Virus record (IMG/VR): IMGVR_UViG_2737471855_000016
Location: 1-11,988 of that record
DNA from: a virus
Lineage: Duplodnaviria > Heunggongvirae > Uroviricota > Caudoviricetes
Direction: 5' to 3' (one strand)
DNA length: 11,988 bases
The notes beneath the pieces are model-generated. The model did not search any database. It saw only the letters and a program-made list of their open reading frames with translations, and had not been told where the DNA came from. How positions within the stretch are numbered: position 1 is the stretch's first letter; the number at the start of each line of letters is the position of its first letter. Shown here one piece after another: positions 9,369-11,449 of this stretch. The position numbers and the translations under genes are program-made.

Positions 9369-9563
9369 ATGCCAGAGAACAACACCAGAAAGCCGGATAA
9401 AAGTGCCACGGTACACATAGACGCCGGAACTATGGAGAAGATCGAACGCTATCAGCAGTTCATCAAAGATAATCACCCGGGTATGCCAGTACCCACGAAA
9501 GGACAAATCACACGCAGCGCGGTTGAATACTGGTACAGGGCAACGTTAGGGGTCTGGCTATGA
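9369..9563 (+). CDS. Small hypothetical protein (64 aa; ORF-track start 9336 is an alternative), coupled to the capsid gene
   Basis: GGAGG lies 7 nt upstream of ATG 9369. Its stop overlaps the next start (ATGA at 9560-9563). A possible small DNA-binding or packaging accessory protein; no family confidently recognised. Confidence 0.55.
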   Translation: MPENNTRKPDKSATVHIDAGTMEKIERYQQFIKDNHPGMPVPTKGQITRSAVEYWYRATLGVWL

Positions 9564-11449
9564 AAACATGGTTTTCCATTAAGGCTATGGCAGATGTTGT
9601 CTATGTGCGCATTTATGACGAGATCGGCGGGTACGGTGTAAAAGCATCGGCACTTACTGACGAGATCAACGCGTGTGGTAATGCGTCTGAAATCCATCTT
9701 CGCATCCATTCACCTGGTGGCGACATCTTTGAAGGGCTGGCTATCTATAACGCCCTGAAAAATCATCCGGCAAAGAAAATTGTACACATTGAAGGCATGG
9801 CGGCTTCTATGGCCTCGTTTATTGCCATGTGTGGCGATCACATCGTTATGCCTGAAAACGCGATGATGATGATACATGCCCCCCGTGGTGTTACTGCCGG
9901 AGTGTCGGGCGACGTTCGCCGCTTTGCTGACCTGATGGACAAGCTGGGCGACACGATGGCGGAAACCTACGCCGGAAGAACGGGCAGGAGCAAACAGGAA
10001 ATCACCGCCATGATGGAGGCGGAAACCTGGATGGATGGCAATGAGTGTAAGGCTAACGGCTTCGCAGATGAGGTTATACCCGCGATTACAGCAATGGCCC
10101 GAATTGAATCAAAACGAATCGGAGATTTTTCAAATATGCCGGAAAAAATTAAAAGCATGATCAGCCAGAAAACTACCAGTGGCGAACAGGAACGACTTAA
10201 CGGCATCCGTGAATTGTTTGGCACGTTCAACGGAAGATATAACGACCTGGCTATAAGTTGTCTTGCTGATTCAGAATGTAGCGTTGAGAATGCACGCGAA
10301 CGCCTTTTACTCGCTATGGGTAAAGAATCAACGCCAACAAACAAAACCACCCCCGCAAATCTTTACTACGCGTACACGGATAACGGCAACATAACCGGCG
10401 ATGCAATGCGCCAGGGGCTTAATGCGCGTCTTGGTCACGAACGGGCCGAACGCGGTAATCCTTACGCCATGATGAGCCTTTTCGATATGGCACAGGCATC
10501 ATTAACCCATCGTGGTATAAGCACGGGCAGCTACGGCACACGCTCGCAGATAGTAAACGCGGCATTCACCCACAGCAGCAGCGATTTTACCGATATTCTT
10601 GCTGGTGGCGCTGAAAAATCAGTGCTTGCAGGCTGGGAGCACAGCGGCGAAACATTCCGCCAGTGGACGAAAAAAGGTTCCCTTTCAAACTTCCGGGAAG
10701 CCCGCCGCGTTGGTATGAATGGCTTCTCAACGTTAAACAAAGTGCCGGAAGGGGCAGAATATAAATACATCACCACCAGCGATCGCGGTGAACCCATCGC
10801 GCTGGCTACTTACGGGAATATTTTCAGCATTACCCGCCAGGCGATAATCAATGATGACCTTGATCAGTTATCAACGGTGCCAATGGCTATGGGCCGTGCA
10901 GCATCAAGAACGGTGGGAAATCTGGTTAATCTGGTGCTTACAGGCAACGTAAAACTTTCTGACGGAATAGCGCTGTTTGACAAAAAACACAGCAACCTGA
11001 TTGAAGCAGGACTGACAACACCGGGACTTAGTGCAGCACGTCACCTGATGCGCACACAGAAGGACAAAAATGGCGAAGTGCTGAATATTGCGCCTAAATT
11101 CCTTTTAGTTCCGGCAGCACTGGAAGATCGCGCGTTGCAGATGATTAACTCAACCGCACCTTTCGGGGCTGATAAAAACAGCGGGATCTTTAACCCGTAT
11201 CACAAGCTACTTGATATCATCGTCGATCCCCGCCTTGATGATATCAGCGAAAAACAATGGTACATGCTTTCCGCACAGGGAACGGACACAATCGAGGTGG
11301 CTTATCTTGATGGCAATGACGAGCCTTACCTTGAACAGCAGGAAGGTTTTATCGTTGACGGCGTGGCCTGGAAAGTCCGTATTGATGCAGGTGTGGCAGC
11401 TCTGGATTATCGCGGTATGGTCAAATCAGGCGGGACAGATTCACTATGA
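9560..11449 (+). CDS. ClpP-like prohead serine protease fused to an HK97-type major capsid protein
   Basis: The N-terminal ~180 aa carry ClpP-family motifs (IHSPGGDIFEGLAIYNA...EGMAASMASFIAMCGDHIVMPENAMMMIHAP), with Ser and His in canonical positions. The C-terminal ~380 aa have a major-capsid-like pattern (ATYGNIFSITRQAIINDDLDQLSTVPMAMGRAASRTVGNL...). One uninterrupted 629-aa ORF. Confidence 0.88.
   Translation: MKTWFSIKAMADVVYVRIYDEIGGYGVKASALTDEINACGNASEIHLRIHSPGGDIFEGLAIYNALKNHPAKKIVHIEGMAASMASFIAMCGDHIVMPENAMMMIHAPRGVTAGVSGDVRRFADLMDKLGDTMAETYAGRTGRSKQEITAMMEAETWMDGNECKANGFADEVIPAITAMARIESKRIGDFSNMPEKIKSMISQKTTSGEQERLNGIRELFGTFNGRYNDLAISCLADSECSVENARERLLLAMGKESTPTNKTTPANLYYAYTDNGNITGDAMRQGLNARLGHERAERGNPYAMMSLFDMAQASLTHRGISTGSYGTRSQIVNAAFTHSSSDFTDILAGGAEKSVLAGWEHSGETFRQWTKKGSLSNFREARRVGMNGFSTLNKVPEGAEYKYITTSDRGEPIALATYGNIFSITRQAIINDDLDQLSTVPMAMGRAASRTVGNLVNLVLTGNVKLSDGIALFDKKHSNLIEAGLTTPGLSAARHLMRTQKDKNGEVLNIAPKFLLVPAALEDRALQMINSTAPFGADKNSGIFNPYHKLLDIIVDPRLDDISEKQWYMLSAQGTDTIEVAYLDGNDEPYLEQQEGFIVDGVAWKVRIDAGVAALDYRGMVKSGGTDSL

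Follow-up and report, generated by a model that had tools for sequence, protein, structure and literature searches.

A fused prohead protease and major capsid gene between two predicted cos sites in an Escherichia coli phage-inducible chromosomal island

The stretch of DNA analysed here (the window; 11,988 nucleotides, positions 1 to 11,988 of the Caudoviricetes record IMGVR_UViG_2737471855_000016 in IMG/VR) carries on its + strand, at positions 9560-11449, an open reading frame (ORF) of 629 amino acids (aa) that unites a ClpP-like prohead protease, a central linker/scaffold-like segment and a major capsid domain in a tripartite head gene. The window matches E. coli RM10410 (NZ_CP042350.1) with 100% identity, and in that genome, by alignment to the empty site of K-12, the surrounding element forms an island of ~11.2 kb between pgrR and mppA with an 11-bp junction repeat. 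By gene content and gene order, the element is a Gram-negative phage-inducible chromosomal island (PICI) of the EcCICFT073 type; the fusion is its sole head gene and is flanked by two direct predicted cos sites. It is proposed, with moderate confidence, that this self-processing fusion would supply shells on the machinery of a helper phage, preferentially for the satellite. The confidence is held at that level because deletion of the capsid gene was without effect in EcCICFT073 (see below) and because the role of the fusion is predicted from sequence.

Capsid genes are carried by 21 of the 29 reference Gram-negative PICIs (PMC10111431), and PICI capsid genes as well as paired cos sites have already been published; the present locus is a further case, in which a fused Gifsy-2-type gene takes the place of the lambda E/D-type module, and current understanding is not overturned by the island. 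The type of capsid gene and the type of cos site in a PICI track the head type of the helper, being lambda E/D in EcCICFT073 and the fused Gifsy-2 type here. A preliminary description of this DNA, made from the letters of the window, had noted no portal or terminase genes and had suggested a satellite that takes such functions from a helper. Domain scans of the window ORFs indeed match no portal or terminase family, and in NZ_CP042350.1 the island ends ~370 bp past position 11988, in non-coding DNA that is all the window misses of it, likewise without either gene; since neither occurs in the whole island, a helper would be needed for both. The RefSeq annotation of the island and the domain scans also contain no lysis, tail, immunity or other virion genes that would confer autonomy.

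The fusion gene and its relatives

The ORF is uninterrupted by stop codons, and its three parts were delimited by Pfam, NCBIfam and PHROG matches and by alignments. In the protease part (residues ~1-180), Pfam CLP_protease covers residues 41-173 (9680-10078; E=3.8e-33), and sequence and profile searches of the PDB likewise return solved ClpP chains; these PDB searches with the fusion gave ClpP chains only and no capsid relative. The catalytic triad, Ser83 (codon 9806-9808), His106 (9875-9877) and Asp170 (10067-10069), is invariant in an alignment of the fusion with phage homologs. Beyond the central segment (residues ~181-330), the major capsid domain (residues 331-623; 10550-11428) is covered by Pfam Phage_capsid_4 (E=8.3e-55), and the capsid half also matches Mu-like_gpT in Pfam (E=9e-9) and phrog_371, 'major head protein'. 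The protein is matched from end to end by phrog_133 (E=8e-281) and scores 892.1 bits, against a cutoff of 475, with NCBIfam NF045540, 'ClpP-like prohead protease/major capsid protein fusion protein'. The preliminary description had read both domains from this one ORF and had proposed domain searches, with the C-terminal half as the critical part; the Pfam matches bear it out in both halves.

That description overstated how unusual the fusion is: NF045540 is a curated, named family, and lambdoid phages of the Stx, mEp460 and cdtI types regularly have the fused gene as their head gene. Full-length, collinear homologs were found in more than 80 phage records, and those of ~51% identity adjoin the portal gene in mEp460, cdtI, VT1-Sakai and many Stx2 phages. 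Aligned over 666 columns, the Gifsy-2 gene and the window fusion are 50% identical, and a single gap, of ~40 aa, falls in the linker. Because such collinear full-length homologs occur in phages, Gifsy-2 included, and among ~2,700 database proteins, a frameshift artefact of two genes, against which the description had cautioned, is excluded. The Gifsy-2 study of 2010 by Effantin and colleagues (Effantin et al., Virology 402:355) reportedly presents the capsid gene as tripartite, with protease, scaffold and capsid parts, and the protease is said to digest internal parts and to leave a capsid domain of ~300 aa.

Compared with the helper fusions, the window protein shows 53-55% aa identity, with the best-conserved blocks in the capsid domain, and no helper copy exceeds 55-60% identity to the PICI fusions. 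The closest database clade consists of proteins of 628-629 aa with at least 90% identity, near-identical ORFs of this length being present on many independent contigs; after a gap follows a clade of 637-638 aa with 62-64% identity. Both clades are borne by PICIs and have derived motifs in common, with lineage-specific motifs in the capsid domain (NPYAMMSLFDMAQASLTHR is an example of a peptide specific to the island capsid protein), and both are short of ~40-45 residues that all phage versions have in the Pro/Ala-rich linker and at the start of the scaffold, the fusion being 629 aa long in the window versus 652-696 aa in phages. Because of the shared derived motifs, the shared linker deletion and the limited identity to helper copies, the PICI fusions are, as far as these comparisons reach, an old and selectively kept lineage of their own with a shortened scaffold linker, and not a recent capture from a helper. 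Between the window allele and a 91%-identical allele, the ratio of nonsynonymous to synonymous substitution rates (dN/dS) is 0.094 overall, with values of 0.13 in the protease, 0.10 in the linker and 0.07 in the capsid part; pairs of phage fusions give 0.10-0.17, so the PICI value is equally low. The fusion is under purifying selection in all three parts.

The 91%-identical allele is found in helper-embedded PICIs (HE-PICIs), immediately upstream of the W gene, the portal gene and the own 674-680-aa fusion of the helper. In these embedded relatives the helper's own fusion gene is intact and the interrupted gene is terL. Both helper types, Stx2-type and mEp460-type, have a fusion of 652-686 aa beside the portal gene; members of the 629-aa clade are embedded in Stx2-type phages or accompanied by Stx2-like cos sites, and those of the 637-aa clade are embedded in mEp460-type phages or accompanied by mEp460-like cos sites. 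From the cos similarity and the embedded relatives, we infer that the helpers are lambdoid phages of the Stx/mEp460 type. Among the predicted helpers are Stx1 and Stx2 phages of cassette-carrying O157, O145 and O111 strains, and the satellite could influence the production and spread of Shiga-toxin phages.

Islands of the 637-638-aa clade sit at chromosomal sites or within helper terL and share the same backbone, with an additional gene of the DUF1441 family (the helper TerS family) between the cos site and the 93-aa ORF described below. This gene, located at 12171-12656 in the sister PICI sequence L008 and at 12174-12659 in L013, is not present in the window island. Relative to helper TerS, its product is highly conserved in the N-terminal two-thirds and divergent in the C-terminal third, a pattern pointing to a small terminase specific to the satellite or to an Rpp-like hijacker.

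The cassette and its predicted cos sites

A G-rich element flanking the gene had been noted in the preliminary description; the element is real and paired, with two direct copies at ~8917-9028 and 11454-11565 (repeat search and alignment), and what had gone unseen was its cos identity. Copy A opens with a terminator-like hairpin, GCCGGAGCAATCCGGC, followed by T6 (8919-8940, + strand), which was read from the sequence and is unlisted on the + strand by a simple terminator scan. The upstream cos site (8941-9030, + strand) has a cosN core, CACGGGGCGGGAGGGCGCGGAAAAA, found by pattern match at 8970-8994 and 82-91% identical to phage cores; its downstream stretch (+45..+190) is 88% identical to the upstream cos of the related sequence L015 and 60-66% identical to phages. 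By this comparison, copy A has a helper-like core and a PICI-specific downstream (cosB) side.

Copy B opens directly after the fusion stop with a similar hairpin, GGCGGCACCAGCCGCC, again followed by T6 (11456-11477, + strand), and the downstream cos site (11473-11595, + strand) has its cosN core, CACGGGGCGGGCGGCGCGGAAAAA, at 11507-11530. Over ~120 nt, copy B is 94-96% identical to non-coding DNA lying ~115-190 bp upstream of terS in Stx1/Stx2 phages and 83% identical to the equivalent pre-terS stretch of mEp460; in comparison with Stx2_112808, identity is 98% in the core and 81% on the cosB side (+45..+190). A RefSeq hypothetical coding sequence of 67 aa at 11385-11588 crosses the 3′ end of the fusion, the terminator hairpin and copy B, and is probably spurious.

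A linear record of the mEp460 type, LR595868.1, starts exactly at the core, CCACGGGGCGGG, and the core pattern CACGGGGCGGG(N1-4)GCGCGGAAAAA occurs once before terS in phages and once or twice per related PICI. As a control, a search of EcCICFT073 with the exact lambda cosN sequence gave two hits, in agreement with the two cos sites published as functional for that island (PMC6092414). On these grounds the G-rich elements are two direct predicted cos sites. The order of cos, small ORF, fusion and cos, with ~2.5 kb between the cores, is common to the window, L012-L014 and L015-L017, and both this layout and the full architecture of the fusion are kept in two PICI clades that are only 64% identical. 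A dual helper specificity, with copy A mEp460-like and copy B Stx2-like, was considered and rejected, since copy A reaches only 66% identity to mEp460 where the background is 60-63%.

The small ORF of the cassette (9369-9563, + strand; 64 aa; phrog_4934, unknown function) ends in an ATGA overlap at 9560-9563, in which its stop TGA (9561-9563) overlaps the fusion ATG (9560-9562), in keeping with the translational coupling described previously. A GGAGG lies 7 nt before its start ATG at 9369, and the 64-aa homolog in L015 begins at the corresponding place. The longest possible version comprises 75 aa from 9336, and RefSeq shortens the ORF to 43 aa (9432-9563); the homolog and the ribosome-binding site favour 64 aa. 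Homologs stand immediately upstream of the fusion in L008, L012 and L015, and, by this conserved position, the ORF is a partner gene to the capsid gene in PICIs of this lineage. It has no Pfam, PDB or PADLOC match, and its low-confidence single-sequence structure model (predicted local distance difference test score, pLDDT, 64) contains two helices; an impression of a ribbon-helix-helix-like protein is unsupported, since Foldseek matched nothing.

Beyond copy B, an ORF of 93 aa (11707-11988, + strand; phrog_1561, unknown function) begins ~197 nt after the cosN core, terS in phages being positioned at ~188-200 nt. It is the last gene in every PICI variant examined, including L008-L012 and EcCICFT073, with 77-87% identity (77% to the last gene of EcCICFT073), and again has no Pfam, PDB or PADLOC match. 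The candidacy of either small ORF as an Rpp- or TerS-like protein was rejected for want of a match in PDB, Pfam and PADLOC, where the solved structures searched should include RppC. Rpp proteins are 144-153 aa long (PMC6739421); no Rpp-like ORF of this length was found in the island, and tblastn gave no match in the rppA region of EcCICFT073. Defence-system families were not found in the cassette.

Proposed role and alternative explanations

In the proposed scheme, a helper of the Stx/mEp460 type would induce the island, which would replicate from its own primase and origin, and helper TerS/TerL would cut and package island concatemers at the island cos sites. The fusion protein would assemble procapsid shells, by itself on portals of the helper or together with helper subunits, and its protease domain would digest the internal parts to leave the capsid domain of ~300 aa. 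Helper portal, head-completion and tail proteins would then finish the particles, the resulting shells serving the satellite preferentially. The shells may be either small (triangulation number T of ~3, one copy of 11.2 kb) or helper-sized (T=7, four copies, ~44.8 kb); a published allometric model gives a T=3 capacity of 11.78 kb, and four island copies amount to 44.8 kb compared with a helper genome of 44.5-46 kb. That the satellite supplies its own, possibly smaller, shell, as the preliminary description suggested, is a plausible hypothesis.

A more specific version, which we consider unlikely, would have the shortened fusion, its 64-aa partner and the PICI-specific upstream cos constitute a minimal one-gene capsid-forming module that builds a shell of ~T=3 (~11.8 kb) and relies on Stx/mEp460-type helpers for no more than portal, terminase, head-completion and tail proteins. 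If true, the island would be an intermediate between classical PICIs, in which all virion proteins are stolen, and capsid-forming PICIs (cf-PICIs), which take tails only, and would have a direct effect on the yield of Shiga-toxin phages in Shiga toxin-producing E. coli.

Several points weigh against a shell-supplying role. In EcCICFT073, the only relative in which deletion of a capsid gene has been tested, removal of c1499 (a capsid gene of the lambda E type, not a fusion) or c1500 (decoration) left transfer and interference unchanged (PMC6092414; PMC10111431), and the DNA of that island is packaged at phage size (PMC6092414). The size of the present island suits a monomer in a T=3 shell as well as multimers in full-sized heads. 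A simple promoter scan gave no convincing sigma-70-like promoter upstream of the cassette, and expression of the fusion, its processing and its incorporation into particles are predictions. The HK97 fold of the capsid half is predicted from strong profile matches, the AlphaFold2 model of the full fusion with 13 homologs (mean pLDDT 40, ~25 in the capsid half) being unusable and too poor to judge capsid curvature.

Among known systems, the Gifsy-2/Stx/mEp460/cdtI phages share with the island the one-ORF protease/central/capsid gene, with 50-55% identity over the whole length and a conserved triad; unlike its counterparts in Gifsy-2-type phages, the island gene stands without adjacent portal, terminase and decoration genes and has a linker ~40-45 residues shorter. 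EcCICFT073 and the island are both ~11.2 kb and have the same gene order from int to the 93-aa ORF, with identities of 94% (Icd-like), 87% (81-aa ORF), 77% (93-aa ORF), 70% (SSB) and 48% (primase), and both have two cos sites with helper-type cosN and an overlapping small ORF before the capsid gene. Confined to EcCICFT073 are a lambda E-type capsid gene, a D-type decoration gene and RppA, with two inverted lambda-type cos sites flanking rppA, whereas the island has the fused Gifsy-2-type gene, no Rpp, no decoration gene, direct Stx/mEp460-type cos sites around the cassette and an unrelated integrase. Interference and packaging specificity of EcCICFT073 depend on Rpp (PMC6739421), and redirection of helper TerS by Rpp is a trait of the EcCICFT073 subgroup, not of all PICIs. 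The HE-PICIs (PMC10111431) have an integrase 95-97% identical to that of the island and an identical left end and carry the 91%-identical fusion allele; unlike these, the window copy is flanked by chromosomal pgrR and mppA and is not embedded in a helper.

Satellite-encoded homologs of helper major capsid proteins also occur in the cos-packaged islands SaPIbov5 (Ccm) and PmCI172. Ccm is reported to redirect the assembly of helper capsids (PMC5052747, PMC8569155), and PmCI172 forms small capsids and encodes a capsid homolog (PMC6092414). Ccm is unrelated in sequence to the island fusion and has no protease domain, and small capsids have been shown for SaPIbov5 and are hypothetical for the island. 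Like the island, the cf-PICIs (e.g. EcCIEDL933) are satellites of E. coli with a capsid protein and a maturation protease of their own; they also encode portal, head-tail connectors, HNH, TerS and TerL and obtain only tails from the helper (10.1101/2022.09.08.507074). Assignment of the island to the cf-PICIs was rejected, as portal, connectors, HNH, TerS and TerL are all absent from it by domain scans and RefSeq annotation. A P4-like satellite was likewise rejected, the primase scoring 97.5 with TIGR01613 primase_Cterm (cutoff 108.7) and no Sid, Psu or Delta being present in the scanned ORFs or in RefSeq.

An alternative to the supply of shells is that the fusion acts in the manner of Ccm, joining helper subunits (for example at pentamer positions), or that its protease acts on helper proheads, so that helper capsids are altered in size or shape or poisoned and helper yield is lowered. 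Mixed assembly is conceivable given the level of identity to helper fusions and the conservation of the capsid domain, and a change such as the shortened linker/scaffold would be expected to affect assembly; precedents are provided by SaPIbov5 Ccm (PMC8569155) and by the small capsids and capsid homolog of PmCI172 (PMC6092414). However, EcCICFT073 without c1499 or c1500 still interfered with lambda, Rpp being responsible (PMC6092414, PMC6739421), and a complete protease, catalytically intact by sequence, together with a scaffold under purifying selection exceeds what a capping or poisoning subunit would need. Interference of this kind is possible, if on balance improbable.

A rather unlikely possibility is that the satellite took up the gene as a late gene of a helper and has no role of its own for it, keeping it as a backup or for recombination with helper head genes, as has been proposed for HE-PICIs. 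A cos-flanked cassette in a mosaic island is consistent with modular capture, and late modules alternate between the fusion type and the lambda E type among otherwise similar islands; yet a mere passenger or backup is argued against because the PICI fusions form their own lineage, with the divergence, derived motifs and linker deletion described above, and because the dN/dS (~0.09 across two PICI clades) points to a function under selection. Furthermore, the embedded relatives interrupt terL and leave the helper fusion intact, so the island copy backs up no broken gene. Scarcely credible is an origin of the 629-aa ORF as a sequencing or frameshift fusion or as the remnant of a lambdoid prophage. 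In its favour, the annotation has a frameshift in one island gene, BRO-N, and the locus is without portal, terminase and tail genes, but identical or near-identical ORFs recur on independent contigs, and the fusion is the ancestral state in phages, Gifsy-2 among them. The precise att junctions and the PICI-type integrase, primase and origin, with no remnants of lysis, tail or immunity genes, likewise speak against a decayed prophage. The supply of shells by the fusion is the preferred explanation.

Island ends and backbone

The left junction (attL core, ~11 bp) lies at 1153-1163, defined by the 11-nt overlap between the empty K-12 site and RM10410, and the same alignment places the right junction past the window end at the window-equivalent positions 12355-12365 (L001 17056-17066). 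The left end of the island, TGGATGTAGGGTACATT, is common to the terL-embedded PICI of L013. A tyrosine integrase of 412 aa (1328-2566, + strand; Pfam Arm-DNA-bind_3, Phage_int_M and Phage_integrase) has 95-97% aa identity to the integrases of the terL-embedded PICIs of L013 and L014 and 22% to that of EcCICFT073. The core of the pgrR-mppA spacer, TTTTTTGATGGAAG, resembles the terL target, CTTCCTGGATGGA, and the island looks like an HE-PICI that used a secondary site in the chromosome.

The main island genes are all on the + strand, and the order is integrase, helix-turn-helix (HTH) regulator, BRO-N, two minus-strand YlcI/YnfO genes, Icd-like, DUF4222, primase, origin, 81-aa ORF, SSB, 64-aa ORF, fusion and 93-aa ORF. 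The small HTH regulator (2580-2783, + strand), in an AlpA/excisionase-like position, is annotated in RefSeq as 'helix-turn-helix transcriptional regulator' and has a weak Pfam HTH_17 match (E=0.005); PF05930 AlpA has no match in the island, unlike in sister islands. The BRO-N gene (2843-3420), frameshifted in the RefSeq annotation, has intact versions of 192-193 aa in L013-L015. A 650-aa ORF with a TTG start (3565-5517) is probably no gene, RefSeq placing there the minus-strand YlcI/YnfO genes and, at its 3′ end, a 67-aa Icd-like gene, and a 65-nt repeat (~4036-4100 and 4903-4967; 85% identity between the copies) shows that a YlcI/YnfO unit is duplicated.

The D5/P4-type primase-helicase (pri-rep; 6133-7950, + strand) matches Pfam D5_N, DUF5906 and Pox_D5 and phrog_864 (DNA primase), the identity of 48% to the EcCICFT073 primase being at the aa level. 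Immediately 3′ of this gene is a predicted replication origin (7949-8164; L001 12650-12865) with iterons of the GGTGAACAGT type and dense direct and inverted repeats, comprising direct families D6 and D7 and inverted repeats I1, I2, I5, I6, I15 and I24; PICI origins lie at the same position, after the primase gene (PMC6092414). The 81-aa conserved PICI ORF and the SSB gene (140 aa; NCBIfam ssb) follow at 8238-8902 (+ strand), with the aa identities to EcCICFT073 given above.

The island is a mosaic, its left arm being 91% identical to L013, its replication module 92% identical to L008 and L013, and its capsid cassette 87% identical to L015, a pattern that indicates frequent exchange of modules among E. 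coli PICIs. Among 5,426 complete E. coli genomes, 1,989 contain parts of the island family, 143 the capsid cassette and 17 the exact mosaic.

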